A stretch of 29,786 nucleotides of DNA from Octopus sinensis (lineage: Eukaryota). Position numbers and translations under genes: made by a program. The DNA lies in NCBI RefSeq assembly GCF_006345805.1, contig NW_021832897.1:1-29786 (forward strand). The letters are read 5' to 3'. The notes beneath the pieces are model-generated. The model had not been told where the DNA came from. It saw only the letters and a list, made by a program, of their open reading frames with translations, and made no database searches. Shown piece after piece: positions 1,682 to 24,805 of this stretch (its first letter is position 1; the number at the start of each line of letters is the position of its first letter).

Positions 1682-2297
1682 CTTTTACTCTTACTCTTTT
1701 ACTCTTTTACTTGTTTCAGTCATTTGACTGCGGCCATGCTGGAGCACCGCCTTTAGTCGAGCAAATCGACCCCCAGGGACTTATTCTTTGTAAGCCCAGT
1801 ACTTATTCTATCGGTCTCTTTTGCCGAACCGCTAAGTTACGGGGACGTAAACACACCAGCATCGGTTGTCAAGCAATGCTAGGGGAACAAACACACACAC
1901 ACAAACACACACATACACATATATACATATATATGACAGGCTTCTTTCAGTTTCCGTCTACCAAATCCACTCACAAGGTATTGGTCGGCCCGGGGCTATA
2001 GCAGAAGACACTTGCCCAAGATGCCACGCAGTGGGACTGAACCCGGAACCTATTTCTTTATTACCCACAAGGGGTTAAACACAGAGGGGACAACAAGGAC
2101 AGACATAGGTATTAAGTCGATTACATCGACCCCAGTGCTTAACTGGTACTTAATTTATCGACCCCGAAAGGATGAAAGGCAAAGTCGACCTCGGCGGAAT
2201 TTGAACTCACAACGTAACGCAGACGAAATACCGCTAAGCATTTCGCCCGGCGTGTGGTTGGTTAGCAAGCTACTTACCACACAGCCACTCCTGCGCC
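1682..2297 (-). mobile_element. SINE family A (tRNA-derived head, CORE-like segment, internal TA/TG microsatellite, (AAAGAGT)n tail), interrupted by a SINE-B unit
   Basis: Head GGCGCAGGAGTGGCTGTGTGG (A box) ... GGTTCAGTCCC (B box), then CTTGGGCAAGTGTCTT. Near-identical to the copies at 25690-26467 and 26627-28099. Confidence 0.9.
2051..2251 (-). mobile_element. SINE-B (B2 tail) unit inserted between the A and B boxes of SINE A
   Basis: The SINE A consensus GGAACCATGTGGTTGG is split as GGAACC|...|TGTGGTTGG. The insert matches the B units elsewhere in the window. Confidence 0.9.
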
Positions 2298-2596
2298 TCA
2301 TTGTTCTGATTTAGTTTCATCCTTGCATGTGCGCGGATATGACTTTTCGTCGTACATCCATTGCCATAGAACTTTATAACCTCAAGAAATGAAATGAATA
2401 GTGAGGCTTTTGTACGTCACTGGATTTAAATGATAAAAACTTCTACAATACTTTTACCATTCTCTCGGTAGTCATTGTCAGTTCCTGTGCTAAGCATTAC
2501 AAAATGACTGATACTGTTTTGACTGAAATTTTTATGTCAGAGTATCTTTCTCCCAAAAGAGTTACTTTCGCTATGGCTTTGTCAATAATAACGGGA

Positions 2597-3169
2597 GCTG
2601 GCAGAAACGTTAGCACGCCGGGCAAAAATGCTTAGCGGTATTTCGTCTGCCGTTACGTTCTGAGTTCAAATTCCGCCGAGGTCGACTTTGCCTTTCATCC
2701 TTTTGGGGGTCGATAAATTAAGTACCAGTTGCACAATGGGGTAGATCTAATCGACTCGTCCCCTCCCTGTTGTGTTATATCCAATGTAAGATGAGCTGGC
2801 AGAAACGTTAGCACGCCGGGCGAAATGCTTAGCGGTATTTCGTCTGAGTTCAAGTTCCGCCGAGGTCGACTTTGCCTTTCATCCTTTCGAGGTGGATGAA
2901 TTAAGTGCCAGTTGCCCACTGGGGTCGATATAATCGACTTAATCCGTTTGTCTGTCCTTGTTTGCCCTCTCTGTGTTTAGCCCCTTGTAGGTAGTAAAAA
3001 AATAGGTATTTCGTCTGTCTTTACGTTCTCAGTTCAAATGCCGTCGGGATCGACTTTGCCTTTCATCCTTTCAGGATCGATAAATTAAGTACCAGTTGCG
3101 TATTGGAGTCGATCTAATCGACTGGCCTCTTCCCCCAAAATTTAGAACCTTGTGCGTAGAGTAGGAAAG
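2597..3169 (+). mobile_element. SINE-B composite (3 units) bracketed by one 13-bp TSD
   Basis: A box TGGCAGAAACG, B box GAGTTCAAATTCC. AATAATAACGGGA occurs at 2584-2596 and 3170-3182. Confidence 0.9.
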
Positions 3170-3334
3170 AATAATAACGGGAATCTTTTAAACCCATAAA
3201 TGGAATCCTAACAGGTACTACAGTTCCAGGAACAAACAGACCTGAGAGTAGTGGTAATTAAGGGTTGACACCACGCTCCCCACAACTCCAAAGCACTCGT
3301 GCCGGTGCCCCACTACCAGATGCAATTTAATGCA

Positions 3335-3491
3335 ACATACGTACATACATACATTTATACATTACATACATTTATACATTACATACATGCATACATACAT
3401 ACATACATACATACATTTATACATTACATACATGCATACATACATACATACATACATACATACATACATACATACATACATACATACATAC
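3335..3491. repeat. (TACA)n microsatellite
   Basis: Direct reading. Confidence 0.95.
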
Positions 3492-3881
3492 AGAAATCTG
3501 CTGTTATTCTATCCAGATTACAAGTTCAGTTTTATACCTGTAATTATTGGGGCCTAAATACCAATCTTGAGAAATTAGGTTTCTTAAAATCAGAAATTCT
3601 CAGACTACTGATGCAATCCATCGCTGGAACCGTAAAAATCTGTAAAACTTTCAAGAAGTTTATCATTTAAATATATATTAGCATGTCTAGATATGTAATT
3701 ATATGCATGAGAATACATACATAAAACATACATACATACACACATACATACATATATACATACATGCATACAAAAATACCCTATTGTTGATGTTGAAATT
3801 CCAATGAAAGAGCCTTGGATTTTGGTTAGAAACCGGTTCTTTCTCTGTTGGCAAGAAATCTTCAAATAAACTGAATATTGA
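3492..3881 (+). mobile_element. 5'-truncated R4/Dong-type LINE 3' end (ORF C-terminus plus 3' UTR) embedded in (TACA)n
   Basis: RNLLLFYPDYKFSFIPVIIGA / LNTNLEKLGFLKSEILRLLMQSIAGTVKICKTFKKFII* (stop at 3668-3670), then ~210 nt of non-coding sequence with AATAAA. TACA arrays lie on both sides. Confidence 0.8.
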
Positions 3882-4032
3882 CATACATACATACATACAT
3901 ACATACATAGACACACACATAAATACATACATACATACATGCATACATACATACATACATACATACATACATACATACATACATACATACATACATACAT
4001 ACATACATACATACATACATACATACATACAT
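3881..4032. repeat. (TACA)n microsatellite
   Basis: Direct reading. Confidence 0.95.
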
Positions 4033-4057
4033 GTAGTGACCAGCTGTTACATATACC

Positions 4058-4112
4058 TTGCTACTCCAATATGTAAGAGTGATAGTAAAATTATGCAAGA
4101 CTTTCCAAAAGG
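4058..4112 (+). mobile_element. Very short remnant of the same R4/Dong-type ORF end
   Basis: LLLQYVRVIVKLCKTFQK resembles LMQSIAGTVKICKTFKK and VQSVRGTVKICKAFLK in the other copies. Confidence 0.5.
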
Positions 4113-4183
4113 TCACTGTTTTTATTCAAATTTCAGCGATAAAGTTTCGTTTCCGAATTAGAAAGCAGTTGCTTCTGCGCGTG

Positions 4184-4345
4184 AATAAGTTAAATAATAA
4201 AAAAAAAACGGGACACACGCATACACATATACATACATAACATGGATACGTAGCATTTATACATATATAACATATACACACAATATTAATACATGCATAC
4301 CAACTCATAGTCATACATACATGCATACACACATACATACATACA

Positions 4346-4376
<31 letters not shown>

Positions 4377-4385
4377 GTACATACA

Positions 4386-4416
<31 letters not shown>

Positions 4417-4842
4417 GTACATACACCCGCATATTCATACATATGCATAGACATATAAAGAATTATACATACATGCATACTTTAACACGTAGATTTACAT
4501 ACAGGTGCATATTTAAGTATAGCCATATATACGTACACACAAATATATACGCAAGCACATGCATCCGTATACACATATACATGCGATTATACACACATAA
4601 ATACCAATACACATTTGTAGTATGTATGCTAGTTACTGCGTGTACATATATATTTATATACATACATGTAGTGGGCAGCTACGTACATTATTTGCAGATA
4701 TATATTAAGTCACACGCACACTATATGGATATACTTAAATATGCACCTGTATGTAAATCTACGTGTTAAAGTATGCATGTATGTATAATTCTTTATATGT
4801 CTATGCATATGTATGAATATACGTGTGTATGTACGTATGTAC

Positions 4843-4873
<31 letters not shown>

Positions 4874-5080
4874 TGCATGTATGTATGTATGTATGTATGT
4901 ATGCATGTATGTATGTATGTATGCATGTATGTACAATGTATGTATGTATGTATGTATGTATGCATGTATGTACAATGTATGTATGTATGTATGTATGCAT
5001 GTATGTATGTATGCATGTATGTACATATGTATGTATGTATGTATGCATGCATGTATGTATGTATGTATGTATGTATGTAC

Positions 5081-5111
<31 letters not shown>

Positions 5112-5317
5112 TGTATGTATGCATGTATGACTATGAGTTGGTATGCATGTATTAATATTGTGTGTATATGTTATATATGTATAAATGCTACGTATGTATG
5201 TTATGTATGTATGTATGTATGTATGTATGTATGTATGTATGTATGTATGTATGTATGTTATGTATGTATATATGTATGCGTGTGTCCCGTTTTTTTTTTT
5301 TTATTATTTAACTTATT
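4184..5317. repeat. Long inverted repeat (fold-back): arms 4184-4529 and 4722-5317, 192-bp spacer
   Basis: Non-microsatellite blocks are mirrored, e.g. AATAAGTTAAATAATAA..ACGGGACACACGC, CCAACTCATAGTCATA and TTTAACACGTAGATTTACATACAGGTGCATATTTAAG. The arms differ mainly in TACA/TATG tract length. Confidence 0.92.
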
Positions 5318-5533
5318 TGGGGTTTGCTGTGGGTTAAAGGAATGAACCAGGCTATTTATCATTCGAATATAACAACTACTACAAACGTTTCTGATTAAGG
5401 CAACAAAAACACAAATTAGCAATTAGTGTGATTAAACCTGATTGTAAAATAATGAACATTATTTTTAATTTTTGGGGGGTTTTTTTTTGCTTTTTTTGTT
5501 TTGTTTTTTTCTTGATTTCTTTATTTAACATTT

Positions 5534-5866
5534 TCACCAGTTCGAACTGAATGACTGTTCTAGTATCGAAACAAAATGGAGACAGAACTCTGAACAATAA
5601 CAACAACGACGACAACAACGACGACGATGGCAATGACTTGTTACATCCAGGGTTGTATTTAATGAAACCTGTTCTGAAATGCCATGGCTAGTGTTTGTGG
5701 CGCCATCTTCCGACCTGTTCTCGTACAGCTGTGTGTCGTCTGCCAGAAACGTTTGCGTGATAAATAATGTTGTTTCTTCGACTTGTAAGTTTTTCAGTTG
5801 AGTATAATAACAACTTCTTGACTCTGTTTGAAAGTACCTTTTAACATTGCTGCCTTTTATATCTTT
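5534..5866 (-). CDS. Candidate terminal coding exon, product unknown
   Basis: Non-repetitive open frame (KDIKGSNVKR...LYENRSEDG...HCHRRRCCRRCCYCSEF...SSNW*) after a long polypyrimidine tract and an AG at 5868-5867. AATAAA follows just after the stop. No recognisable domain. Confidence 0.25.
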   Translation of the reverse strand, partial: KDIKGSNVKRYFQTESRSCYYTQLKNLQVEETTLFITQTFLADDTQLYENRSEDGATNTSHGISEQVSLNTTLDVTSHCHRRRCCRRCCYCSEFCLHFVSILEQSFSSNW

Positions 5867-6113
5867 CTTTATTTGAAAAAGAAAAGAGTAAAATAAAAGA
5901 AAAGAAGAAGAAAGAGAAAGGAAGAAACTCAAAGAAGATTAGCTCAAGAATTGTATATTGTAAATAAATGAATCTATTCGAGCAAAGATCGTTATGCGGT
6001 ACGAAAGAAAAATTTAGTTGAAACAACTAAATATGAACCATCATTGCATTCACCCTTCTTGTTCTAATTTGTGTAGATAATGACGGAGGTAGTAGAGGGC
6101 GGGGGTGCTTTAT

Positions 6114-6114
<1 letters not shown>

Positions 6115-6162
<48 letters not shown>

Positions 6163-6177
6163 AAATAGTAGTAGAAA

Positions 6178-6222
<45 letters not shown>

Positions 6223-6237
6223 AAATAGTAGTAGAAA

Positions 6238-6276
<39 letters not shown>

Positions 6277-6360
6277 AAATAGTAGTAGAAATAGTAGTAG
6301 TAATAGTAGTAGTAGTAGTAGTAGTAGTAGAAGAAGAAGAAGAAGAGAAGAAGAAGAAGA

Positions 6361-6416
<56 letters not shown>

Positions 6417-6420
6417 AAAT
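6115..6420. repeat. (AGT)n/(AGA)n compound trinucleotide microsatellite with AGAAAT interruptions
   Basis: Direct reading. Confidence 0.95.
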
Positions 6421-6714
6421 AGTGGGTATGTGATTCAGGAGTAGTGGTATGTTGGTGAACTAAACTTTGCTACACAGAAAGTCTTTTGGGTTCCATCAAA
6501 GTTGTTTCTGGTTTTTTTTTTAATCAGTCAGAGATAGAGGCGAGACAGTTTTTATGACCTTTTCAATGGTCCCTTCCAGACTAACGAAACCGGTACGGTG
6601 GAAGCGCATCCTAAACCTATTCCGCATGAAATATATGGAGAGAGATTTGGTCTGAATGTCTGCAACAAGTAAGCCTCTGCTAAAGATGCTCAAGAACCGA
6701 GTTAAGGTGTTTAA

Positions 6715-6930
6715 CCCTTTAGTGTTTAAACCGGCCATATCAGGCCAAAACTGTCTTCTTGTTTTATGCTCAAACCAACCAGCTCTGACCTCTCACACCT
6801 ACCCTACAAAGTCATTAAAAATAAACAGCGACATCATAATCTCAGAGTTACAAGATGCCGTACAATTAATTTAAAACAATGTAATTAAACAGGCTTTACA
6901 TTTGACAGATTAATCTGAATGCTAAAGGAG
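6715..6930. mobile_element. piggyBac-like MITE
   Basis: TTAA|CCCTTTAG...CTAAAGGAG|TTAA, with the TTAA TSD at 6711-6714 and 6931-6934. Confidence 0.7.
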
Positions 6931-7387
6931 TTAAACAGGCAGTGTATTGGTTTTAACAGTAGCACTGTTCCAGATATACGTGTAGTGCCCCCACTTTGGG
7001 CTTTAAGAGCTTTGTAGAGAGTCAGCAAATGAACAGAGCCGCGCTATTTTCGAGCTGCAAATAGGAAGCGTGGTCTTTATGATGCAGATTTAGCAATGTG
7101 ATATATGTGAACTTGTCATGTGAGATCACTGAGATTGTATGATCTAGCATTTCCAATTAATAAGAGGTGGGGTATTATTCGTTATTTATGAATAGAGAGA
7201 TTGAAATACTTGACTGTGTATTCCATGTGCGTAGTTATTGCAATGCATGTTATCATTTCGCTATTGAAGCATGTTTCCGAGGTCTTTGCTAACGTCATGA
7301 AATGTCTAGGCTGTGTGTGGTTGATGCCTGCGTACGGATGTTTCTGTAGGGTGTAAAGTATATATCTTCAGAGGAGTGCATAATACT

Positions 7388-8040
7388 GATTTTAAATGTT
7401 GGCACAAGGCCAGCAATATCGGCGGAGGGGTAAAGTCAATTACATCGAGTCCAGTGATCAACTGGTATTTATTTTATCGACCCCGGAAGGATGAAAGGCA
7501 AAGTCGACCTCAGTGGAATTTGGACTTAGAACGTAAATACGGACGAAATGCCGCCAAGCATTTCGCCCGGGGTGCTAACGATTCTTATTTCTTTATTGCC
7601 CACAAGGGGCTAAACATCGAGGGGACAAACAAGAACAGACAAAGGGATTAAGTCGATTACATCGACCCAGTACGTAACTGGTACTTAATTTATCGACCCC
7701 GAAAGGATGAAAGACAAAGTCGACCTCGGCAGAATTTGAACCCAGAACATAACCTTTTCTACTCTAGCCACAAGGCCCGAAATATTTTGAGGAAGGGGCC
7801 CGTCGATTAGATCGACCCCAGTATGCAACTGGTACTTAATTTATCGACCCCGAAAGGATGAAAGGCAAAGTCGATCTCGGCGGAATTTGAACCCAGAAAT
7901 AGGCAGACGAAATACTTATTTCCATTTCATTACTACCTACAAGGGGCTAAACACAGAGGGGACAAACAAGGACAGACAAATGGATTAAGTCGATTTTATC
8001 GACCCTAGTGTGTAACTGGTACTTATTTAATCGACCCCGA
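7388..8040 (-). mobile_element. SINE-B tandem array (4 units, 5' head missing)
   Basis: Repeated ATCGACCCCGAAAGGATGAAAGGCAAAGTCGACCTC cores, with junctions at ~7585, ~7751 and ~7916. Confidence 0.9.
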
Positions 8041-8889: not shown

Positions 8890-9300
8890 TTCTCTTACAT
8901 TCTAGGCACAAGGTCGAAATTTGGGGGAGGGGACGAGTCGATTAGAACTGGTACTTAATTTATCGATCCCGAAAGGATGAAAGGCAAAGTCGACCTCGGC
9001 GGAATTTGAACTCAGAATGTATAGACAGACGAAATACCGCTAAGCATTTCGACCGTGCTAACGTTTCTTATTTCTTTATTGCCCACAAGGGGCTAAACAT
9101 AGAGGAGACAAACAAGGACAGACAAAGGGATTAAGTCGATTACATCGACCCCAGTGCGTAACTGGTACTTAATTTATCAACCCCGAAAGGTTGAAAGGCA
9201 AAGTCGAACTCGGCGGAATTTGAACTCAGAACGTAACGGCAGACGAAATACCGCAAAGTATTTCACCCGGCGTGCTAACGTTTCTGCCAGCTCGCCACCT
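8890..9300 (-). mobile_element. SINE-B dimer
   Basis: Head GGTGGCGAGCTGGCAGAAACG at ~9299, internal junction at 9067/9068. Confidence 0.9.
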
Positions 9301-9499
9301 TTCATCTTACATTGGATATAATACAACTGGTTGTGTTGCATCCTTCAGTGCAGGTGTATGTCATCAGGTAAAAAAGATACCTCGCTCAATATCTTTGGTT
9401 TCGCTTGGTTCGCTTATACGGCATGTTGTTATTGACAGGAGATGGATACAGTTTCCGGGTTATAACCGGTTAATGGATCTACCTATGGTTATTATATCA

Positions 9500-10155: not shown

Positions 10156-10346
10156 GGCGGCAAAGAGCAAAATGTCATGTGACATTCATTTAGCCCTGTC
10201 CTTTTCGTTATCAGTTCAAACCATACCGCAATTGGCTTTGCTTTACCTAAGCCAGAATTCATTATAAACAGAGATGAGGCAATAGATTGGCGAAAGGATT
10301 AGGGTGTTGGACTGAATCTCCTGCAGTATTATTAAAACTCCTTAAT

Positions 10347-10756
10347 AAGGAGACGAGCTGGCAGAATCGTTAGCCCACCGGGCGAAATGCTTAGCAGTAT
10401 TTCGTCTGCCGCTACGTTCTGAGTTCAAATGCCGCCGAGGTCGACTTCACCTTTCATCCTTTCGGAGTCGATAAATTAAGTACCAGTTGCGTACTGGGGT
10501 CGATCTAATCGACTGGCCCCCTCCCCCAAAATTTCCGGCCTTGTGCCTTGAGTAGAAAAGAATCGATAGCACGCCGGGCGAAATGCTTAGCAGCATTTCA
10601 CCCGTCTTTATGTTCTGAGTTCAAATTCCGCTGAGGTTGACTTTGCCTTTCATTCTTTCAGGGTCGATAAATTAAGTACCAGTGAAACATTGGAGTCGAT
10701 GTAATCGACTAGTCCCCTTCCCCAGATTTGCAGGTCTTATGCCTTTAATAGAAAGG
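10347..10756 (+). mobile_element. SINE-B dimer with one degenerate 19-bp TSD
   Basis: ATTATTAAAACTCCTTAAT (10328-10346) versus ATTATTAAAGCTCTTTTAT (10757-10775), 16/19 identical. Internal junction at ~10560. Confidence 0.88.
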
Positions 10757-11292
10757 ATTATTAAAGCTCTTTTATGTTTTACGTTCAAATCCCATCCTAG
10801 TTGTCTTTGAATGTGACAGTATCAAGAAAATAAAGTACTGCACGGCTAATGTGGGCTGAACCAATCCTCTCAAACTTCGTAGACTTTGTGTCTATATTAA
10901 AAATATTATACAATACGGGAAATAAACGAAAGAGTAAGCGTGTGTAATAGTTTTAATGTATTCCGACATCGCATATAATAACGTGAAAATAAATGACCTT
11001 GTGATATTGTATTAATAGAAGCGGATCAAAACGATCTCTTTGCAGTCAAAACCGAAAGTTTCAACCAGAAAGCACGCTTGCTAAATGAGTTTAACTTAAT
11101 TAAATTAGCAATTCGTATGCTTTAAAGAGATTAAATATCGTAAGAAAGTTTTTAGATCTTTTAAACACTACAACAATCCTGATAATTCGATACTGTGACA
11201 TCACTAATGAAATAACAAAGCTCGCCCGGGTTTGAGTAGTTTGAGTTTCTACATTATTTCAGATGACATCACGGGTTTTGCCTTATCGCTGA

Positions 11293-11811: not shown

Positions 11812-12250
11812 AGTACATACACATGTGCTTTCTCTTATCTCAGTCACATTTAACAGACATAAAAACATTTTCTTCACATTTCGATTCCGTTCTGGTCGTT
11901 TGCCATGTTTTGAAACGATTGTACAAAAACCAACATTTACCGTGTTCCAGCCAGTAATTAACGAGGATCAGTAATTAACGTAGCAGCCCAAATCCCTTGA
12001 ATCCCCTAAATGACACCCTACCAGCTAGAATAAAAGAACACGTGGGAAAATATAGTCCTAGATGCACTATATCTGAAAAAAGACAAAATGGAACAACATT
12101 AACAAGAAACACTACTACTACTACTACTATTCTACTACTACTACTGCTGCTGCTGCTGCTACCACTTCTACCTGGCACCTGTCATAGCTGGGTGGTAGAT
12201 TTAATCCATCATCCCGGTTAACACCACTTAACGTTTATATAATTGAGCGG

Positions 12251-12470
12251 TTCGTTACCAACCCGGCTGAAACCAGCTCTGGCTCTGAGTACAAATGTCT
12301 TATTTTCATGAGTTTTGTACTAAAATCTTCCACCAAACCTTAGTCACAATTTATGTTCCTAACACTAGCTGAATGATAACTAAGTTAATTTACTAAATTC
12401 TTTGTTATATTTAAAGTAAATGAAAGAAACACAGAGCATCCCAAAATAAATACAGTAACGAAAGGATCAA
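12251..12470. mobile_element. Probable piggyBac-like MITE with a damaged left end
   Basis: Residual TIR TTCGTTAC (12251-12258) / GTAACGAA. The right end GTAACGAAAGGATCAA resembles ...AAAGGG|TTAA. Confidence 0.5.
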
Positions 12471-13450
12471 ATGCCGTTAGCGATGTCCACTCTTACAAAC
12501 ATTCGAATCGGGTCGCTAGTTTGCGGATAACTTTACTCTCTTTCTCTCTCACCAGTCTTGAAGGCCCTGTAAAATTCTCATGGGTGTCGCCCTTTTCTCA
12601 TTTTGTCTACGCCCTGAAAATAATAGGGGTTTGAACGAGAGATCTGATGCTTGCGAAGTAAACCTCTTAAACCGTTCACCTACGTCTTTCTCCTCTCTTA
12701 CCGCCAAAATGCTTATACCACGTGTTCAAACAGCCTGGTATTTACAAAAGTCAAGTTTGACTTGCAAAATTATTTCAACAAGCTACGTCAACGCGTCAAA
12801 CATGTTGGCAGACAGGTATTTTCTGAATTCATACCTGATTAATCACCAATTACATACCTGCCTATTGATCTTTCCTGTCCTTACTCGCGACTCTACATAT
12901 TCACAATTCTAATGTTCCGATTGACCTCTTAGAAACTGCGTCAGCGACTTTCTTAAAACTAGTAGTATACGCATTTTCAATGAAATGTCAAAAATATCCC
13001 ATCTTATGATCCAAATATAGATTTTTTCTTGATTCTTTTTCTTTTTTTAAATGTCGAACATTTCAAAAGTGAACTAGAAAACGTAGAGTTCACCTTTTTC
13101 TTCAGATGTAAATGTTAAACTCGATTATTTTACATTATTTGTTCGGTGTAATTTTCTTTCGTGGCGCTGAAGTGAGAAAATGTTGATCAAGTCTTTAGTA
13201 AAAACTGATCAAACGTCAAGTTATACAACTTATATTTCTTTTATGACAATTTACGACAATGACACAGCAACAAATTAGGCCATAAACCGTAAGTTCAATA
13301 AAACTCTTGCTAAACACACAGGTCATAAACAAACGTTAAGTTCAATAATTACAACTTTAAAATTCGAGGTCAATTTCTATTTGCTGTTTTGAATAGGCTG
13401 ATGGCTAGTGGTGATAGCATGTTGCAGATCGCCGTTAATATTCTGTGTAG

Positions 13451-14252
13451 AGAAAGGCGGCGAGCTGGCAGAATCGTTAGCATGCCGGGCGAAATGCTTC
13501 GCAGTATTTCGTCTGCCACTACGTTCTGAGTTCAAATTCCGCTGAGGTCGACTTTGCCTTTCATCCTTTCGGAGTCGATTAAATAAGTACCAGTTACGCA
13601 CTGGCGTCGATACAATCGACTTAATCCGTTTGACTATCCTTGTTTGTCCTCTCTGTGTTTAACCCCTTGTGGGTAGTAAAGAAATATGTATTTCGTCTGC
13701 CGCTACGTTCTGAGTTCAAATTCCGCTGCTGTCGACTTTGCCTTTCATCCTTTCGAGGTCGATAAATTAAGTACCAGATGAATACTGAGATCGATGTAAT
13801 CGACTTAATCCCTTTGGCTGTCCTTGTTTGTACCCTCTGTGTTTAGCCCCTTGTGGGTAGTAAAGAAATAGGTATTTCGTCTGCCGCTACGTTCTGAGTT
13901 CAAATTCCGCCGAGATTGACTTTGCCTTTCATCCTTTCGGGGTCGATAAATTAAGTACCAGTTTTGCAGTGAAGTCGATGTAATCGACTTAATCCGTTTG
14001 TCTGTCCTTGTTTGTCCTCTCTATGTTTAGCCCTTTGTGTTGTGGGCAATAAAGAAATATGAAACGTAAGCATGCCGGGCAAAATGCTTGGCGGCATCTC
14101 GTCAATCCCTATATTCTGAGTTCAAATTCTGCCGTGGTCGAATTTACTTTTTATCCTTTCAGAATAAAATAGTACCATTTGAGCGCTGGAGTCAATGCAA
14201 TCGAATTACTCCCTCCCCTGAAATTGCTGGCATTGTGTCAAAATATGAAACC
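13451..14252 (+). mobile_element. SINE-B tandem array (4 units) with one 14-bp TSD
   Basis: AATATTCTGT(G/A)TAG at 13437-13450 and 14253-14266. Three B2 units precede a much more diverged terminal unit at 14061-14252. Confidence 0.92.
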
Positions 14253-14609
14253 AATATTCTGTATAGCCTGTTATGACAGTTGTCGCCATTAGTGTAGCGA
14301 TGTGGCGGTGTGATGGTGTATAACAGTGTGGGTGTGGCGTATGGTTGGGTTTGTGCGGTGCATGGTAGTGTCGCTGAGATGTATAGGTGTTAGCGTAGTG
14401 TATGCAGCTGTAAGTATGACGCAGAGTAATATTAATTTGATATATGACATAGTAGGGGGCATGGTACCTTTGATGTGGTGTATGATAGTGTTGGCGTGGT
14501 GAGCGTAAACCCTTTAACATCGTGTTAATTTAGAAATAATTTAAAGATATAGTTGGGAACGAAAAGAGAAGCATTAAATATAATATCTTGCAAGATCTAA
14601 ATAGTGATG

Positions 14610-14860
14610 TTAACATCCTTTAATCTTCCACACCAAAGATCTGCGCTTGGAAAGTCTTGCTTCTTTCTTGTTGGCAGACCAGCATCAGTTGTGGCTATAG
14701 AGACCCATGTCTGAGTGACAGCCACGACTGCAGTGACTACGCTTGGAAGAGTTCTCTGCCAGCTTTCTTCTGTTGCTGTTTATCAGCCGATTTTTTATTT
14801 TTCATCGGCGAGCATCAGCCCCGCCTCTCAACTTCCTAAACCCTTGCCTAATTCCAATAA
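14610..14860 (-). mobile_element. Degenerate RTE-clade LINE 3' end
   Basis: The minus strand at 14732-14682 reads CSRGCHSDMGLYSHN*C, matching the RTE C-terminal C..C.S.+GL.SH motif, followed by a short 3' UTR. Confidence 0.7.
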
Positions 14861-14899
14861 TGTTATGTATAAAGGCCATATATTCAAATGACTGGTTTT

Positions 14900-16410
14900 C
14901 AAAGAGCCAAAATAGCTTTATAACTTGTCATGTTTAATAATTATGACCATGCAAATATTAATCGATGTCGACTGAATTTTAGATATTTATTCAGCACATC
15001 TGCAGCTGCACACTTCAAGTTTGCATTTTTTTATACTTGTAAAGTGAATGCTTTTTTTCTGTAGCATTTTATATCAAGACTGCAGACATTCTTTGCAGAA
15101 GTAATCCAAACTAGAATAAACTTGTTGTTTCTTGTCTTTCTCAATCCATTCTTGAATGCAGAGGACGCATATATGGATCATGGACTCATACCCATCATGG
15201 AATCATTAGCTGTTATCCAACTGCTAGCTTGAAATACGCTCCTTTTGATATTTCTTTACAAGTCATCGCTTTTCGGGAATATTCTTTCCATATATGATAG
15301 AACAACTTCATTCGCAGCATATCAATATTGACATCATAATGCAAATTTCAGATCTCAGACAAAACCTCAGACAGACCTCAGACAAACCCCAGACAGACCT
15401 CAGACAAACCTCAGACAGACCTCAGACAAAACCTCAGACAGACCTCAGACAAAACCTTAGACAGACCTCAGACAAACCTCAGACAGACCTCAGACTAAAC
15501 CTCAAACAAACATCAGACAAACCTCAGACAGACCTCAGACAAACCTCAGACAGACCTCAGACAATCCTGAGACAGACCTCAGACAAAACTTCAGACAGGC
15601 CTCAGACAAACCTCAGACAGACCTCAGACAAAACCTCAGACAGACCTCAGACAAACCTCAGACAGACCTCAGACAAACCACATGACAATTCCGTTTAATT
15701 ATGATTAAATATAATATCTAGTGATGGCGGCATTTGTTAATTCTTTGATGAGTGGTAGAATATTGTCCTTCGTCTTGATACAGCATCGTTTGTCCCTTAA
15801 ACTTGAAGGCTGATATGTCTGGATCAGTGAAAACATAATGTCTGGATTAGTGGAAGAGAGCCATTGATTTGCAAGATCAATCCTGAATTTGAGGCAATGT
15901 TATCTAAGATCATTTTGGCTGCTTTTTCAGTTTTGAATGAAATTTGATTTCAGTTTTTTAGTTTGTAGTGATGATGTGGTAGAAAATATTCCGATGTATT
16001 GCTTCAACATCAGTATCTCGTACATATACCATCCCAAGAGATGGATATTTGAAGGTATTAAGATTTACCACAAAATGAATAACAACTTCGTCCAGATTAC
16101 ATTGTTCCATTGGAGTACCATTTCTTGAATTGGGTTTCGTATAAGCAACCTCAATTTCTAACATTATCTTTTTCTTTTTGTTTTTCTTTTTGAAAGTCCC
16201 GAAAGCATCTTTTTGTTACCTGCAGTTGCCAAATAATTATCCTAGTTTCCTGAGACCTTGGTTTTACCAGACACATACTATTGTATACTAGTCCTTCGTT
16301 GCTCATTTGTACCACCTTAGAATGTCGATGTATGGCATTGATTCCAAACAATGTCTTGCCGTTCTTTTCAAATCATACCCAAATCCATACGTAAAACCGT
16401 CCATGAAATA
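14900..16410 (-). mobile_element. Highly decayed L1/Tx1-like ORF2 C-terminal remnant, split by a minisatellite
   Basis: Scattered minus-strand peptides W*NQGLRKLG*LF, FRDFQKE, AYFKLAVG, ITANDSMMGMS and CVLC...ETTSLF occur in the order expected for the L1/Tx1 zf-RVT region. Many stops and frameshifts. Confidence 0.35.
15348..15679. repeat. 11-12-bp minisatellite (CCTCAGACAGA / CCTCAGACAAA[A]), ~30 units
   Basis: Direct reading. The two variants largely alternate. Confidence 0.95.
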
Positions 16411-16693: not shown

Positions 16694-16953
16694 AACGAGT
16701 CAGTAAGTGACCGCTTGAATAGCAAATACTTCTCTTCCAAATGGGGTACGAACAAACCGAAAGAATAAATGTAGTATGGGATGTAGTCCGAAAAACTGAC
16801 GCGTCACAGCAGGACCAAAAGTTTGCTCCAGCAGAGCTGACCTGGGCCTAAAGAACAGCAGCTACTACTACTACTACTACTACTACTATTAATGATGAAG
16901 ATTTATTTTCAATCTTAATGTACTTCTGGGTCTACAGCATAATGTTATATTAT

Positions 16954-18807
16954 TTTCTACTATAAGCACAAGGTCCAAAATTTTGGGGGTGGAGGCCACT
17001 CGATAATATCGATCCCAGTATGCAAATGGTATTTAATTAAATCAACCCCGAAAAGATGAAAGGCAAAGTCGACCTCGGCGGCATTTGAACTCAGAAGGTA
17101 AAGACAGACAAAATACCAATTTCTTTACTTCCTACAAGGGGCTAAACATAGAGAGGACAAACAAGGACAGACAAACGGATTAAGTCGATTATATCGACCC
17201 CAGTGCGTAAATGGTACTTAATTTATCGGTTAAACATTTTCGGTATGCAAATTAGTGACTCCCTGCATAGAAAAACTGCTGCATTTGTTGAGTATATATA
17301 GAGTTTATTGAGCGGTTATAAATTTTCGGTATGCAAATTAGGGACTCCCGCATAGAATAAATGCTGCCTTTGTTGAGTATCTATAGAGTTTATAGACGGA
17401 TTAAAAAATGTTGTTATGCAAATTAGGGACTCCTTCATAGAATAACTGCTGCGTTTGTTGAGTATATATAGATTTTATAGAGGGGTTAAACATTTTCGGT
17501 ATGCAAATTAGAGACTCCATCGTAGAATCACTGCTGCATTTGTTGAGTATATATAGAGTTTATAGAGGGGTTAAACATTTTTCGCATGCAAATTAGGGAC
17601 TCATTCATAGAATAACTGCTGCATTTGTTGAGTTTATAGAGGGGTTAAAAATGTTGGTATGCAAATTAGGGACTCCTTCCTAGAAAAACTGCTGTATTTG
17701 TTGAGTATATATCGAGTTAATAGAGCGGTTACACATTTTCTGTATGCAAATTAGTGACTCCCTGCATAGAATAAACGCTGTATTTGTTGAGTATATACAG
17801 AGTTTATAGAGCGTTTAAACATTTTTGGTATTCAAATTATGGACTCCTTCATAGAATAACTGCTGCATTTGTTGAGTATTTAAACAGTTTATAAAGTGTT
17901 AAACATTTTCAGTACGCATCCCGAAAGGATAAAAGCCAAAGTCGACCTCGGCGGAATTTGAACTCTGAACGTGACGGCAGACGAAATACCGCTAAGCATT
18001 TCGCCCGGCGTGCTAACGTTTCTTATTTCTTTGTTGCCCACAAGGGGTTAAATATAGGGGGGACAAACAAGAACAGACAAAGGGATTAAGTCGATTATAT
18101 CGACCCCAGTGCTTAACTGGTACTTAATTTATCGACCCCGAAATGATAAAAGGCAATGTCGACCTCAGCGGAATTTGAACTCAGGACGTAAAAACAGACG
18201 AAATACCTATTTCTTTACTACCCACAAAGGGCTTGACACAGAGAAGACAAACAAGGACAGACAAACGGATTAAGTTGATTATATCGACCCCAGTGCGTAA
18301 CTGGTACTTATTTAATCGACCTTGAAAGGATGAAAGGCAAAGTCGACCTCGGCGGAATTTGAACTCAAAACGTAAAAACAGACGAAATACCTATTTCTTT
18401 ATTACCCACAAGGGACTAAAGACAGAGGGACAAACAAGGACTAACAAACGGATTAAGTTGATTATATCGATCCTTGTGCATAACTGGTACTTATTTAATC
18501 GACCCCGAAAGGATGAAAGGCAAAGTCGACCTCGGCGGAATTTGAACTCAGAACGTAAAAACAGACGAAATACCTATTTCTTTATTACCCACAAGGGACT
18601 AAAGGCAGGGGGGACAAACAAGGACTGACAAACGGATTAAGTCGATTATATCGACCCTTGTGCATAACTAGTACTTATTTAATCGACCCTGAAAGGATGA
18701 AAGGCAAAGTCGACCTCGGCGGAATTTGAACTCAGAACGTAGCGGCAGACGAAATACCGCTAACCATTTCGCCCGGCGTGCTAACGTTTCTGCCAGCTCG
18801 CCGCCTT
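16954..18807 (-). mobile_element. SINE-B tandem array (6 units) with one 18-bp TSD, containing a satellite insertion
   Basis: AGCAT(A/G)ATGTTATATTAT at 16936-16953 and 18808-18825. Junctions at ~17117, 18023, 18207, 18391 and 18574. Confidence 0.92.
17229..17917. repeat. ~85-bp tandem repeat (8 units plus a partial ninth), each full unit with an octamer motif
   Basis: ATGCAAAT at 17245, 17331, 17416, 17501, 17586, 17659 and 17744, and ATTCAAAT at 17830. Periods are 86, 85, 85, 85, 73, 85 and 86. Confidence 0.95.
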
Positions 18808-19179
18808 AGCATGATGTTATATTATCGCGTGATCTCGTTTAATACGTAAGTTTGTATCCACGTGTGATTTCAGACATACTTTAATAGGTAGTTTTATTTC
18901 TCTCTTTGTTACATTTATACGTAGTTTGTGTTCTTGTGTGATCTCGTTATACCGTTGGAACGGAGTTTATGTTCACGTGTAATCTCGTTAATGTATTTTA
19001 TACGGTTTAATTGCAGTCAATTTACAACTGAAGACGTGTACCAGGCTCAGCGATGTGCGGGAGCTCTATCACGCACAGAGCTGGCGCCTGCTCTGTTTAC
19101 ACCACGGAAGTAGAATTTAAAAGATCAATAACACCTCCACTGTTTTTTTTTTCTTGTGCCCTGAAACAGCAGATGTCAT

Positions 19180-19217
<38 letters not shown>

Positions 19218-19619
19218 ACACACACACGCTACACATACATGCGAATACACACACATACTCACACGCAAGTATTCACTCACGCACATACAGAGAAACATAA
19301 ATATATACAAATATAAACAGACGAAATATAAAACGACATATGTAAAAACATACACACATGCATGTACACACGCACACGGACACACGGACACACTCGTACA
19401 CACATTCACACGAATACACAGTCCTCGAGTCGTCACATACGCACCCACTTTATGTATGTGGCACAAATTATCCGTTTAAATAGCCGATCGGCGATGTATA
19501 GGTTTGCGTGCGTATGTGGTGGTGGTGGTGGTGGGGTGTTTTATCTAATAATAGGGACCAGTTTGATTTCGGTCACATATGATGATGATGTGGAGGAGTA
19601 GGAGAAGGTGACAATGATG

Positions 19620-19722
19620 ATGGTGATAATGATTATAGAAATAATGTTAATAATAATAATAATTATTATTATTGATATTATTATTACAGTTGTTATCACC
19701 ATCGTTGTTATTATTATTATTA

Positions 19723-19761
<39 letters not shown>

Positions 19762-19772
19762 CATTATTATTA

Positions 19773-19822
<50 letters not shown>

Positions 19823-19890
19823 TTATTATTATTTTATTATTATCATTATAATTATTATTATTATTTTATTATTATTATTATTATTTTATT

Positions 19891-19941
<51 letters not shown>

Positions 19942-19963
19942 GTTGTTGTTATTATTATTATTA

Positions 19964-19997
<34 letters not shown>

Positions 19998-20004
19998 GAT
20001 ATTA
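19620..20004. repeat. Long (TTA)n microsatellite
   Basis: Direct reading. Confidence 0.95.
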
Positions 20005-20270
20005 TGCAAAGTGAGAGACAAGGTAGAATATGATTATGAGGCTGTTGATGTCTCTATGGCAACTGCCTTTCATGTTTTAATTAGCAGGTTGTTCCTGTAG
20101 CAAGCATCATGGAAGAGATTCTAAAAATGAAATAGAGTGAAGAGGTATCAATAACAACAACAACAACAACAACAACCGCAACAACAACAACACTAGCAGC
20201 AGCAGCATAGTGAGAAGACATTTGCAACAACACTCGACAATGCAGCACAATGCTGGTCGTGTCGGTCTGC

Positions 20271-20450
20271 AAGAAGTAGCAACCAAATTTCCTTTAAATC
20301 TTACCCTACCGTGTTAAAAACGGAAGGGCACATTAGAAAGTGTGATCTTAGATATACAGTGTCTGGAAAAATAACGGCTGGACGTTACTGAAACTATTTT
20401 GACCTTAACTCGGCTGGATTAGAACTGATCTAAGTGTTAATTAACAAAAA
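20271..20450 (+). mobile_element. Old interspersed repeat (probable retroposon 3' end); related pieces at ~8558-8740, ~11981-12110 and ~16760-16870
   Basis: Shared degenerate blocks AGTAGC.C.AA.T.CC.T.AAAT..CACCCTACC, ..TAGTCCTAGAT.CACT.T.TCTGAAAAA and GCTGACCT..G..TAA. Confidence 0.5.
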
Positions 20451-20599
20451 CACTTGTTCCAAAGTTGATGGTCTTAATGTCACAGCACAGGGATTATGGT
20501 GCCGGTACCATCAACAATAATAGTATAGATGTATATACATACATGCATACATACATACATACATACATACATACATACATACATACATACATACATACA

Positions 20600-20629
<30 letters not shown>

Positions 20630-20630
<1 letters not shown>

Positions 20631-20883
20631 TGGGTTGGTGCATAATTATTGCGGCTTTTTTTCAACAAATTTTTTTTCAACAAAAATAACATGTAACAAA
20701 AACATCTTTAAATGATTATTCCGGAGCATATTCACCATCTACTTCAATTACTGCTTCCTATTTGCTTGGCAGACAGTCAGACCGTCAATTTAAAGATGCT
20801 TTTGTTAAATATTGTTATTGTTTTTGTTGAATAAACATTTGTTGGGGGAGAAAAAAAGCCGCAATAATTATACACCAAACCAA
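20630..20883 (-). mobile_element. Internally deleted mariner element (MITE-like)
   Basis: TIRs TTGGGTTGGTGCATAATTATTGCGGCTTTTT / AAAAAGCCGCAATAATTATACACCAAACCAA with a TA TSD at 20628-29 and 20884-85. The minus strand at 20772-20716 encodes LPSK*EAVIEVDGEYAPE*, the mariner transposase C-terminus. Confidence 0.9.
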
Positions 20884-20885
20884 TA

Positions 20886-21265
20886 CAAAAAAAAATATTG
20901 GTGGAATTTTAAAATTAAAACAGCCACAAAGTTAAAGCACAACCGGCCAGATATTATTGTTGTGTGGGGCCTTAAGGAAAAGATATGTTCTGTTGTGGAA
21001 ATCAGCTGTCCCCTGGACACGAAAGTAGTTAGAAAAATACTAGAGAATGAGGACATCTTTGAACAATTGATAAGTTTGCAAATCAAGTACCCAAGATACA
21101 TTTTCAGCATCATACTTGGAGCAACAGGATATATACCGACCCGTCTGGAGCAAAGTATGACTGAACTTGGGACCTTGGGTAGAGAATGTAGATCCTTAAT
21201 TCATATGCTACAAATGATCTAGGATTATAAAACTCTGTAAGGTGTTCTTAAAATTTAAAGGATGA
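20886..21265 (+). mobile_element. R4/Dong-type LINE fragment covering the restriction-like endonuclease domain
   Basis: YWWNFKIKTATKLKHNRPDIIVVW...CSVVEISCPLD...KYPRY..IILGATG... then, frameshifted, IIKLCKVFLKFKG*. Contains the RPD...E catalytic motif of PD-(D/E)xK RLE domains. Confidence 0.88.
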
Positions 21266-21349
21266 TAGTTAAAACAAGACCCTTTCCTTCACAACCCTAC
21301 TAGTAAGTAGATGGTCGGTCAAAATTTACTCTCAGTTAAAAGGAGAAAG

Positions 21350-21651
21350 TGGAGGCACATGGCCAAGTGGTTAGAGCAGCGAAGTCGCGGTTGGGGGATC
21401 GCGGGTTTGAATCTCAGACCGGGCGATGTGTGTATGTTCCTGAGCGAAACACCAAAGCTCCACGCGGCTCCCGCAGAAGGTAATGGCGAACTTCTGCTGA
21501 CTCTTTCGCCATATCTTTCTCTCACTCTTTCCTCCTGCATCTTGCAGCTCACCTGCGACGGACCGGCATCCCGTCCAGGTGGGGAACTTATACGCCAAGG
21601 AAACCGGGAAACCGGCACTATGAGCCCGGCATGGTTTGAGAAGGAACAAAC
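21350..21651 (+). mobile_element. SINE family C, full length
   Basis: A box TGGCCAAGTGG, B-box-like GGTTTGAATCT. Perfect 13-bp TSD TAAAAGGAGAAAG at 21337-21349 and 21652-21664. Confidence 0.9.
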
Positions 21652-21788
21652 TAAAAGGAGAAAGAGAAGAACATCCATCCATCCATCCATCTATCCAGCC
21701 AGCCAGCCAACCAGCCAGCTAGCCAGCCAGCCATCCATCCATCCGTCCAGTCAGCCAGCTATGTATGCATGCATGCATACATATATAC

Positions 21789-22171
21789 CAGGCACGTTCC
21801 GTCAGTAATTACGCAGGGTAGGCAGTTGATGACCTTTATGTCGTAAAACACATGAAAATAAGCGAAACAGGCGCGCGACTGAGTTGTATGCAGATTTATT
21901 TCTGCCTTTATAGCAAGTAAAGAAAACGTTGTTGCAGGAATCTATTATGCGTAGCTTAAACACTGAGATTGAAAAGCAGGGGTGAATTATGCCTACCTAA
22001 TCTATAAATAAATTTTTAAATTTTGCATTTTATACCAGGTAATCAGAGTAACCATTATAATTTTATTGAATTAAGTGCATATTTTGCCATAAAAGGAAAA
22101 TATTTCTGTCAATCTATTTTATCCAAGCTAGGCATTGCTTACCTTGCCTACCTAGACAGCACGTCCCCCTG
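21789..22171. mobile_element. hAT-like non-autonomous DNA element
   Basis: Ends are CAGGCACGTTCCGTC and the reverse complement CAGGGGGACGTGCTGTC, with subterminal GGTAGGCA on both sides. The 8-bp flanks ATATATAC / ATACATAC are within a microsatellite, so they are weak TSD evidence. Confidence 0.6.
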
Positions 22172-22218
22172 ATACATACATACATACATACATACATACA
22201 TACATACATACATACATA

Positions 22219-22411
22219 CGTAAGGGTATAAAGGACGCACTTTTTCCAAAAAAAAATGTGTTTAAGAAAATCACCCTCGGCCTGATATACGAAGCCGGGC
22301 TTCTCATAAGCTAATTATGTCGCTGACGCTCACTTCTTTTTGCGCATGCGCTGCTGCTGATATTGGGGTGCGTCTAATATATCCGCGCGTCTTTTATGAA
22401 ATCAAATACGG
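22219..22411. mobile_element. Tc1/mariner (Tc2/pogo-like) MITE, left end eroded
   Basis: Right end GCGTCTTTTATGAAATCAAATACGG|TA. The left ATAAAGGACGCAC is its partial inverted counterpart. Confidence 0.55.
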
Positions 22412-23002
22412 TACTAACTAGATGTAACACAATTCAAATGTAAACCTGTAACTCACCTGTCATTAAACAAGAGTTATAATCTGATAAAGATGATTTAAAA
22501 TATGTATTTATTCCAGATTAAGAGGATATATATTTAAGCATTAACAAAATATGGTATTTAATGCAAGAAATATCACTAAATATAGATTGATTTCATCAAC
22601 ATACAAATATAAGAACATATTTTATTTTCATACCTTAAAACGTAATATTATTCCACCAGATTATATTAATCTATAACTTTACCAATAATCTATCTAACAT
22701 TCTGGATAAAAAATATGATTAATTGCTTTTCTTAACTTGAGTGAAACAAAGAATTTTTTTTTTTCAAAAATATTAATGAAAATGGGGAAAACATTCTCTG
22801 TAAAATAACCATATTCATCAAAAATTCCGAAGAAATATAAAAAAAAAGATCAACCAGTTTTGATTCCTTTAAAGACAAAGAGAACCTACGATAAATTAAT
22901 GCATGGCACTCTAATTAAAAATAAATTTCCATCGCAAAATTCCTTTGTAATTAGTCGCTAGATTTCACGCTCGTCGTAATACACGATTACATTTTAAATA
23001 AT

Positions 23003-23165
23003 TCTTTCTAATTTTTGACACTGGGCCAGCAACTTTGAGGAGAAGGAAAGTCGGTTACATCGCCGCCAGTACTCAGCTGGTATCATCTGGTATACAGTTT
23101 GTCGCTTACATCCACAACTTGACTCGTACTTTATTTTATCGACTCTGAAAACTCAAAGCCGACCT
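23003..23165 (-). mobile_element. Old degenerate SINE-B fragment
   Basis: GTCGGTTACATCG..CCAGTACTCAGCTGGTA..TTTATCGACTCTGAAA matches the SINE-B body. Confidence 0.6.
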
Positions 23166-24029
23166 CTAAACTGTTCTCGTATCTTCCATTATATTTTTAA
23201 TCTTTACAACAGATTTGTCTAATTCATTTGATAGAATTATGGAAATGCCAGATTTTGTTGGTTGATTTCAATCTATATTCTCGATCTGGCATTCGTAACA
23301 ATCATAAAAATAAGTTTTGTATTTTGTATTGTTATTAATGTTTGCAATAAAATAGGCAAACGAAAATGAATGACAATTTAATCATTCTATAACGCAATTA
23401 ATTTTCGTGACCCTAAATTATCAATCTTTAATATGATAAAATATATTTAATGAATTAATTATTTACAGCAAAAAATAAACGTAAAATTCTAAGATTTAAA
23501 ATGGCCAACCCATTTTAAGTAATAACGATGATATACGATTAAAATCCTCACGAAATTTATCACTGTTTAATATATTAATACTTCATATTATATCATAGTA
23601 TTATTAAAACGCAAATTATTGTAGCTGGAGATGGGGAGATGGCAGCACTCCCTATCTTCAAACCACTGGAAAATTTCGTACTCAGATACGAACAACTATA
23701 TTAGATTGCCTAAGATCTACTCCTTAAAACAATTACTTTTCATTAAGCGGGTATTTCCTTTTATTAAAGAAGAATATTATTATGATATTTTTTGCTTCGT
23801 GTTTAGATTTTTTAAATTATCATTTTAAAGTTTTGAGGCGGGGTGGAGGGTTACTGTTCTTCCAGTGGAGGTTAGCAAATTGCTAAAGCATGAAAGTATT
23901 ATATTTGGTAATCTCCGAAGGGAAGAACAATTAAACTCCATTAAAATAATATTTCTTTCATTCATTTAGCCACTAGAGGATATCATTTCAATTAATAATA
24001 ATGAAATAAAAAGAGGATAAACAAATAGT

Positions 24030-24805
24030 AATTTTAAGCTTTGACACAAAGTCAGCAATTTGGGGGGGGGGAGCATGGGACAGTAGATTATATCGGCCCA
24101 GGTATTTGGTTGGAACTTTATTTCGTCAACCCTGTATGAATGGTGAAGTTCACCTTGACGAGGTGTCAAAGCATTTTTTTTCCCCGACATCAACGATTCT
24201 ACCCGCTCGCCGCCTTAATAATCATTTCTACTCAAGGCACAAGGCCTGAAATTTGGAGAAGCGGGGGCTAGTCGATTACATCAACCCTAGTATTCCACTG
24301 GTACTTAACTTATCTACCCCGCGAGGATGAAAGGCAAAGTCGACCTCAGCAGTATTTGAACTCAGAACGTAGCGGTAGACGAAATACCTATTTCTTTACT
24401 ACCCACAAGGGGCTAAACACAGAGATGATAAACAAGCACAGACAAACGGATTAAGTCGATTATATCGACCCCAGTGCATAACTGGTACTTATTTAATCGA
24501 CCCCGAAAGGATGAAAGGCAAAGTCGACCTCGGCGGAATTTGAACTCAGAACGTAACGGCAAACGAAATACCTATTTCTTTACTACTCACAAGGGACTAA
24601 ACACAGAGGAGACAAACAAGGACAGACAGATGGATTAAGTCGTTTATATCGACCCCAGTGCATAACTGGTACTTATTTAATCGACCCCGAAAGGATGAAA
24701 GGCAAAGTCGACCTCGGCGGAATTTGAACTCAGAACGTAACGGCAGACGAAATACCGCAAAGCATTTCGCCCGGCGTGCTAACGTTTTTGCCAGCTCGCC
24801 GCCTT
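24030..24805 (-). mobile_element. SINE-B cluster: old copy (24030-24215) abutting a 3-unit array (24222-24805)
   Basis: Heads GGCGGCGAGC at ~24214 and ~24803, junctions at 24388 and 24572. Confidence 0.9.

Follow-up and report, generated by a model that had tools for sequence, protein, structure and literature searches.

Self-homing of SINE-B2, a conventional SINE subfamily of Octopus sinensis, into heads of its own family

Introduction

The window studied here, which is the whole of contig NW_021832897.1 of Octopus sinensis (29,786 nt, from a genome of 2.72 Gb), raises the question of why one kind of short interspersed nuclear element (SINE) ends time and again inside the head of another. 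An earlier note on this DNA had read the element, SINE-B2, as a hyperparasite that lands in the RNA polymerase III (Pol III) promoters of other SINEs, does so without a conventional target site duplication (TSD), and borrows the upstream A box. Here, we find the phenomenon to be real and larger in extent than the window, and to be self-homing by a conventional SINE rather than hyperparasitism of Pol III promoters. Moreover, a single base in the B2 tail predicts the motif at which a copy is inserted, and the choice of target by SINE-B2 is likely self-reinforcing.

SINE-A and SINE-B are the two main SINE families in the window. A head and core are common to all SINE-B copies (consensus 1-165) and are followed by one of three tails, termed B1, B2, and B3. 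The B2 unit is 231 bp long, with the tail terminus AAAGAAATA at consensus 231; the B1 tail terminates in AAAGAAT, and both B1 and B3 tails, the latter being the older type, mostly run into (ATT)n. Two target sites in the SINE-B head are at issue, these being position 48 (GGTATTTCG) and position 15 (AGAA(A/T)CG). Judged by its sequence, B2 appears to be a transfer RNA (tRNA)-type SINE subfamily that is otherwise conventional, and its 100 tails per 1.2 Mb agree with the copy number of a tRNA-derived SINE (>100 copies). A- and B-box-like motifs are visible by eye in the SINE head, and local alignment to 20 tRNAs is weak (the best match of the SINE-A head being tRNA-Lys). Searches with ARAGORN and Rfam gave no match, and a B2 copy folded as RNA has a structure no stabler than that of shuffled sequences (z -0.35). 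Copies of SINE-A are partly younger than B2.

For the genome-wide view, we sampled 120 stretches of 10 kb (1.2 Mb), which start at round coordinates of contigs C1-C30 and come disproportionately from small chromosomes, and several tallies (the TSD scores and the allele-target table) pool these sampled loci with pattern-selected ones. The window itself is rich in SINEs and atypical.

B2 junctions in the window and genome-wide

In the window, the 15 B2 tails listed in the earlier note are all present within a few bases of where it had placed them, and SINE head follows in 15/15 (ten at the own-family position 48, four at position 15, and one in a SINE-A head). The sample gave 109 B2 tail matches, with the 3′ end reached in 100. 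Of these complete tails, 37 lie at position 48 and eight at position 15, 55 adjoin non-head DNA, and none is in SINE-A; counted per locus, a head junction is found in 26 of 69 B2 loci and none in the other 43. Heads constitute only ~1% of the sampled DNA, yet they receive 45 of the 100 tails at two exact positions, and the junctions are base-exact. B2 head junctions are thus far above chance. In the whole genome, exact matches to the tail followed by GGTATTTCG number 39,661, as against 0 for reversed control patterns, and those to the tail followed by GGTAT number 68,914. Scaled from the sample, this amounts to roughly 200,000 B2 tails and 100,000 junctions genome-wide.

The statement that B2 is never joined to unique DNA holds for the window only. 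The earlier note had itself named a majority of B2 tails in unique DNA as the outcome that would speak against its proposal, and such a majority, though a narrow one, is what the sample contains (55/100). Nor do most copies lie at one site, as in target-specific elements that lack long terminal repeats (non-LTR elements), there being 37 + 8 in heads versus 55 elsewhere.

Rather than other SINEs or Pol III promoters at large, B2 hits almost exclusively its own family. The GGTA site of SINE-A (GGTAAGTAGC) carries 40 junctions genome-wide versus 39,661 at the own-family position 48, even though GGTAAGTAGC occurs 103 times in the sample and GGTATTTCG 58 times, and the SINE-A junction at 2051 has no second exact match anywhere in the genome. 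B2 is older than many of the SINE-A copies, and this weakens the thousand-fold gap but cannot remove it. The tail followed by GGTTCGA, a proxy for true tRNA genes, gave 15 matches, counted without context. An element that hits Pol III promoters regardless of sequence would not be expected to give such figures (SINE-A receives 0/100 sampled tails and has 40 and 1 exact junctions at two sites versus 39,661), and the label of a hyperparasite of SINEs is better replaced by self-homing. B1 tails are also found at position 15 in a few cases (2/67 sampled, plus window 10559), which suggests that the effect tracks sequence match and not a special protein partner of B2.

Insertion sites and tail alleles

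Where B2 stands in unique DNA, it has a full head of its own and TSDs, with a TSD score of at least 9 in 30 of 47 full-length monomers (null 1%) and TSD lengths of 7-23 bp. The supposed want of a conventional TSD is accordingly not borne out, and because the 47 stand-alone copies analysed possess their own head, no A box need be borrowed from upstream. Among arrays, the same score is reached in 10/20 with a B2 end and in 15/35 with a B1 or B3 end. Truncated as well as inverted B2 copies are present, so that both TSDs and 5′ truncation/inversion, the hallmarks of target-primed reverse transcription (TPRT), are found. The 5′ inversions in the B2 copies L093, L156, and L164 are as twin priming predicts.

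Here, the TSD starts at the first base past the B2 tail, usually with GGTA(T), AGAA, or TATA, and since the insertion has the motif at either end, the motif was already in the target. For tails outside heads, the next bases are GGT in 14/55 versus a background of 1.1% (p=1e-15). Moreover, the number of tails per site climbs with the length of the match to head sequence, being 0.0017 at 3 nt and 0.45 at 9 nt; the longest matches in this series are the head junctions themselves.

More conspicuously, base 219 of the B2 tail, which is either T or C, predicts the target motif in heads and in unique DNA alike. GGTAT is the motif of head position 48 and AGAA that of position 15. In heads, allele T is found 163 times at position 48 and six times at position 15, as opposed to eight and 47 times for allele C (p=3e-33). 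In non-head DNA, allele T adjoins 45 GGTAT-like and four AGAA-like sites, and allele C four and 22 (p=3e-11). The 171 terminal tails in this allele table include ~26 units of the satellite L245, none of them in the four tested cells. The sample alone gives 34 at position 48, two at position 15, 17 GG, and five AG for allele T, and zero, four, one, and eight, respectively, for allele C. The two alleles are of equal age (divergence 6.8% vs 7.3%). An RNA carrying the 3′ flank of its parent would explain the coupling of allele and target simply, which one endonuclease does not. A 29:1 mismatch asymmetry in the first five TSD bases was set aside, as the classes had been defined from the right-hand copy. 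The satellite L245 (G000:C1:13006845-13008144) has a 53-bp unit, repeated at least 25 times and made up of the last 31 B2 tail bases and ~22 flank bases; it is a truncated insertion with its TSD, expanded in tandem.

Order of events within arrays

Younger B2 copies have been added to older residents, as the earlier note had proposed. In 42/49 pairs, divergence is lower in the upstream B2 than in the B1 or B3 terminal unit (6% vs 14%), inner and terminal units thus not being equally old, while neighbouring B2-B2 units show no age difference. In the window array at 13456-14258, the core of the terminal unit, which carries the older B3 tail, is 19% diverged versus 7, 10, and 7% in the three B2 units, bearing out the stronger decay noticed there; the terminal cores at 7380 and 8903 are only 9% and 4% diverged. 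The decay of terminal units comes close to that of stand-alone B1/B3 copies (13% vs 16%); within the collected loci, no terminal unit has a twin (0/72). For the B3 unit of the window, the best genomic match is 84% among the 40 scored of 5,735 candidates. Nested TSDs at position 48 are visible in L146 and L149, where an old head up to position 61 is followed by a full B2 with a 14-bp TSD, and in L282, in which a truncated B2 has a 14-bp TSD with a host-private base. In L186, host-private bases at 45-55 flank the unit on both sides.

Such clean nesting is rare: among full-length units that adjoin a head of their own family, a nested head is found in only 2/105. In SINE-A hosts, which offer no head homology, a TSD starting with GGTA is visible in 8/12 insertions and the full head is kept in 10/12. 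The single 5′ head of arrays is mostly B2-like or chimeric, and the heads of old-ended arrays are chimeric, with the host-type base T19 in 17/39 of them versus 11/71 pure-B2 heads (p=0.002). Host units are also unusually close to B2 in the first 15 bases past the junction (1/100 vs 20/130; 4/167 vs 17/116), and this likeness fades after ~15-30 bases without spreading over 48-165. Sharing of rare bases between the upstream B2 and the old terminal unit is at background level beyond position 65; hence, copying of host sequence across the core is not the general case, and the idea of long hidden TSDs was set aside.

Some neighbours did arise by local duplication. Of 72 pairs of neighbouring B2 units, 12 consist of nearest relatives and seven differ by no more than 2%, and 14/76 pairs have at least two rare bases in common versus ~1% at random. 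With 19 close pairs removed, the agreement of neighbours in subfamily bases is 58% versus 56% at random. Local duplication is thus real, but minor, accounting for about one neighbour pair in six. Homogenised arrays with most-alike neighbours, as expected of a SINE-derived satellite, are not what 12/72 describes. A fixed order derived from few masters, as in composite SINEs, is likewise not seen, given the 0/72 twins and the absence of in-register likeness among 1,824 array pairs. Whole-multimer retroposition and local duplication together account for a minority only. Head-to-tail joins in L066, L275, L296, L311, and L005 (apparent duplications of 44-93 bp) were left uncounted, being ambiguous with internal deletions. 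A six-unit B2 array at L069:1100-2272 has TTAGGG repeats at two junctions and a duplicated two-unit block.

Proposed mechanism and alternative explanations

The reading that we prefer, and consider fairly probable, is that read-through RNA primes on the target and that annealing at the 5′ end hides the TSD. B2 RNA would read a few bases beyond its tail, and these extra bases would pair with the nicked target during TPRT. A source copy inside a head would yield an RNA ending in head sequence, for which the longest genomic matches would be own-family heads, making the homing self-reinforcing. At the 5′ end, the complementary DNA (cDNA) may anneal to the homologous resident head, leaving a seamless junction, a hidden TSD, and a chimeric head. 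Every insertion would recreate the target site and 184-bp arrays would grow. Towards read-through, priming, and 5′ annealing as component steps, we lean to about the same degree. Read-through annealing is described as increasing R2Ol insertion in the available text of PMC6530143, and R2 ‘Anneal’ 5′ junctions as seamless in that of PMC11331408. The wider proposition, on which we are evenly divided, is that a SINE inherits its target preference from its parent's site, with the 3′ flank acting as a short guide RNA, that copies inserted at some time in an own-family head gave rise to lineages which home to this head and restore the site, and that ~100,000 junctions came about without a site-specific endonuclease.

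Several observations weigh against the read-through reading. The TATA target class, common to both alleles, is unaccounted for by head sequence. The first 14 head bases are young and B2-like in 24/39 old-ended arrays, which would need near-complete replacement of the host head. Conservation past the junction may partly be an alignment-start bias, and for older hosts at position 15 it is not significant (p=0.15). TSD mismatches, as far as score-biased detection can tell, are not clearly more frequent in old-ended arrays (13/230) than in B2 monomers (26/546). Among the listed contigs of four sequencing runs over 12230-15300, none bridges the array and no host-only locus was seen; in a relative ~6% diverged, the left flank of this locus runs into SINE head. 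Furthermore, in a set that is far from exhaustive, none of 50 reverse transcriptase (RT) loci (30 from an RVT_1 search, all on unplaced contigs, and 20 added chromosomal RT regions) terminates in a B1, B2, or B3 tail.

Target choice could instead lie with the endonuclease of one or more partner long interspersed nuclear elements (LINEs), Tx1- or R4-like, cutting at GGTAT or AGAA sites, with the alleles moved by different LINE variants and the 5′ ends joined by homology. Base-exact junctions would fit, SINEU with Tx1-Mar provides a precedent (in the available text of PMC4494074), and for Octopus vulgaris, recent activity is recorded for LINEs of the Tx1, Dong-R4, Hero, and R2 kinds (in that of PMC13282606). 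We nonetheless judge this unlikely, as two enzymes would be needed, each matching the SINE's own head by chance, while the T and C alleles are equal in age and have the TATA class in common. Moreover, a LINE with a B2 tail end was found neither in the 50 RT loci nor among 100 listed of 336 matches to a B2 tail end without a SINE upstream; except for one local satellite, those 100 revealed no recurrent upstream sequence (61 tail-only loci were inspected). Less likely again is that microhomology guides only the stand-alone insertions and that most head junctions come from ectopic gene conversion or repair synthesis, with an existing array (as DNA or cDNA) copied into a homologous monomer. The seamless 5′ junctions, the chimeric heads, and the B2-like bases right after the junction could all be had in this way, but nested and truncated insertions with TSDs exist at the same sites, the B2-like stretch fades ~15-30 bases past the junction and does not cross 48-165, and arrays share no donor units.

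Whole arrays might also be made in one event, with RT beginning on one SINE RNA and jumping to B2 RNA 3′ ends at 48 or 15 under a single outer TSD. The B2-like starts in 24/39 old-ended arrays are the main point in its favour, since a template-switch model predicts the same; the one outer TSD per array, the usually B2-like 5′ head, outer TSDs that are not clearly older, and the template jumps known for R2 (in the available text of PMC3414825) add to it. However, the terminal B1/B3 units lack source twins and fall little short of stand-alone copies in decay, old host-type heads are present in at least one third of arrays, nested TSDs contain host-private bases, and in none of ~12 headless 5′-truncated arrays does an adjacent TSD score exceed 7, all of which makes one-event assembly quite improbable. 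Lowest of all we place SINE-derived satellites, in which local tandem duplication proceeds from a few composite masters retroposed whole. This is true for a minority, as the close neighbours (7/72 within 2%, 12/72 nearest relatives, 14/76 with common rare bases) and the clear local expansions in L069, L111, and L245 attest. As the main cause it is disfavoured by the 60/72 neighbours that are not nearest relatives, by the random-like agreement (58% vs 56%) after removal of close pairs, by the 1,824 array pairs without in-register similarity, and by the three tail types among terminal units.

Two observations concern the LINEs themselves. At L228:4605-4619, the last 15 B2 tail bases come directly after the (AG)n end of an RTE-like LINE, possibly a template jump between SINE and LINE RNA. 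The best RVT_1 matches are near-identical young LINE copies on unplaced contigs only (C12597, C8702, and C12603 among them); they are unlike the chromosomal RTE- and CR1-like families, and the contigs may belong to another organism or to an unassembled compartment.

The endonuclease is what usually accounts for the target preference of non-LTR elements, and here copies one tail base apart prefer different motifs. This two-allele preference points to the RNA end as guide, an idea that can be tested in nature on tens of thousands of events. If true, the read-through reading would offer a way for retrotransposition to turn dispersed SINEs into tandem arrays, and in self-insertion the landing site would come at low cost. 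As array heads are chimeric, age estimates and repeat libraries for the octopus genome will mis-split these families.

Arrays in the window

Of four TSD-bracketed clusters claimed for the window, three were recovered, with repeats of 13 bp at 2584/3170, of 14 bp at 13437/14253, and of 18 bp at 16936/18808, the last two having 1 mismatch each. The fourth, of 19 bp, was not, the nearest being a 16-bp repeat with 2 mismatches (~10354-10760) around a cluster without a B2 unit.

The B2 in a SINE-A head (2050-2254, minus strand) spans consensus 26-232, carries allele T, and sits at GGTTCC without a TSD between SINE-A halves at 1935-2050 and 2253-2296. On the plus strand, the cluster at 2584-3182, with its 13-bp TSD at 2584-2596 and 3170-3182, consists of a head and core piece (2595-2756), a B2 (2793-3004) with a position-48 junction, and a B1 remainder (3005-3173). 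The minus-strand cluster at 7380-8040, around which no TSD was found, begins with a truncated B2 (7924-8040), joined at position 48 to a B1 (7750-7915), and continues with an allele-C B2 (7586-7753), joined at position 15 to a B3 remainder (7380-7585). At 8893-9313, likewise on the minus strand, a full allele-C B2 (9069-9299) meets a B1 remainder (8903-9068) at position 15, with a 9-bp flanking repeat (8893/9305). About 25 bp of 5′ flank is common to two oppositely oriented B2 copies that lie 6.5 kb from each other (2770-2792, plus; 9305-9330, minus) and have tails of different alleles; a local templated copy or 5′ capture is possible.

The cluster without B2 is a plus-strand B1-B1 dimer (10325-10769), in which a B1 tail is joined to head position 15 within the 16-bp flanking repeat. 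The plus-strand array at 13437-14266, bracketed by the 14-bp TSD, comprises B2 units at 13456-13686 (allele T, junction 48), 13688-13870 (allele T, junction 48), and 13871-14059 (allele C, junction 15), followed by the old B3 host remainder (14061-14258). On the minus strand, the array with the 18-bp TSD (16936-18825) holds B2 units at 18574-18805, 18391-18574, 18207-18391, and 18024-18207, then a unit in two pieces (17920-18023 and 17119-17228) with an 85-bp minisatellite between them, and a B1 remainder (16954-17117). This minisatellite (8 copies, 17227-17918) replaces nothing obvious and is not SINE-derived by alignment. Lastly, the minus-strand array at 24219-24803 has B2 units at 24572-24803 and 24388-24572, both with position-48 junctions, and a B1 remainder (24219-24388); it sits directly upstream of an older SINE-B copy, and the direct repeat 24211/24800 overlaps SINE head in part. 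Apart from the SINEs, a long inverted duplication (4220-4500 and 4700-5280) was seen by eye around (ACAT)n/(TATG)n microsatellites.

Comparison with known systems

Octopus tRNA-derived SINEs named OR1, OR2 (CORE), and OK were reportedly described by Ohshima and Okada in 1994 (cited in PMC4758252). SINE-A and SINE-B are probably these families, the likeness by description lying in a tRNA-like head, a common core, and alternative tails. For OR1, OR2, and OK, neither arrays nor homing were found described in the literature searched. In the case of Ty1/Ty3 and the Dictyostelium TRE elements, Pol III factors provide the tether and the targets are Pol III genes at large; B2 resembles them in that insertion is linked to tRNA-type promoters, but differs in sparing the equally abundant SINE-A heads. 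Self-homing of this kind was not found described in the literature covered, with Repbase, Dfam, the 1994 octopus SINE and 2015 octopus genome papers, and some supplements outside the search, and the available text of two octopus repeat papers (PMC13282606, PMC12988792) is without mention of it.

In the parts of the published accounts available for each system, closer likenesses are found. SINEU-3 with Tx1-Mar in crocodilians also shows a strong preference for a repeat and tandem copies formed by sequential insertion, and in its related families the preference is partial (13-90%), as in B2 (PMC4494074). In contrast to B2, the target of SINEU-3 is a DNA transposon (Mariner-N4_AMi) and not its own family, TSDs are visible between tandem copies, and the preference is ascribed to the partner endonuclease, with no allele-coupled motif (PMC4494074). 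R2 (R2Ol, PRINT templates) and the R2/R1 SIDEs resemble B2 in 3′ read-through annealing, as proposed here for B2, in seamless 5′ homology junctions, and in having non-autonomous derivatives (PMC6530143, PMC11331408, PMC3414825). However, R2 has strict endonuclease specificity for 28S ribosomal DNA, whereas B2 is widely inserted in unique DNA and has its own head as target. Squamate SINE-derived satellites resemble B2 arrays in their head-to-tail partial units and a distinct leading and trailing unit, though they are credited mainly to unequal recombination and homogenisation (PMC10702118). Unlike them, B2 arrays are short (2-6 units) and dispersed, with neighbours mostly of different source and age.

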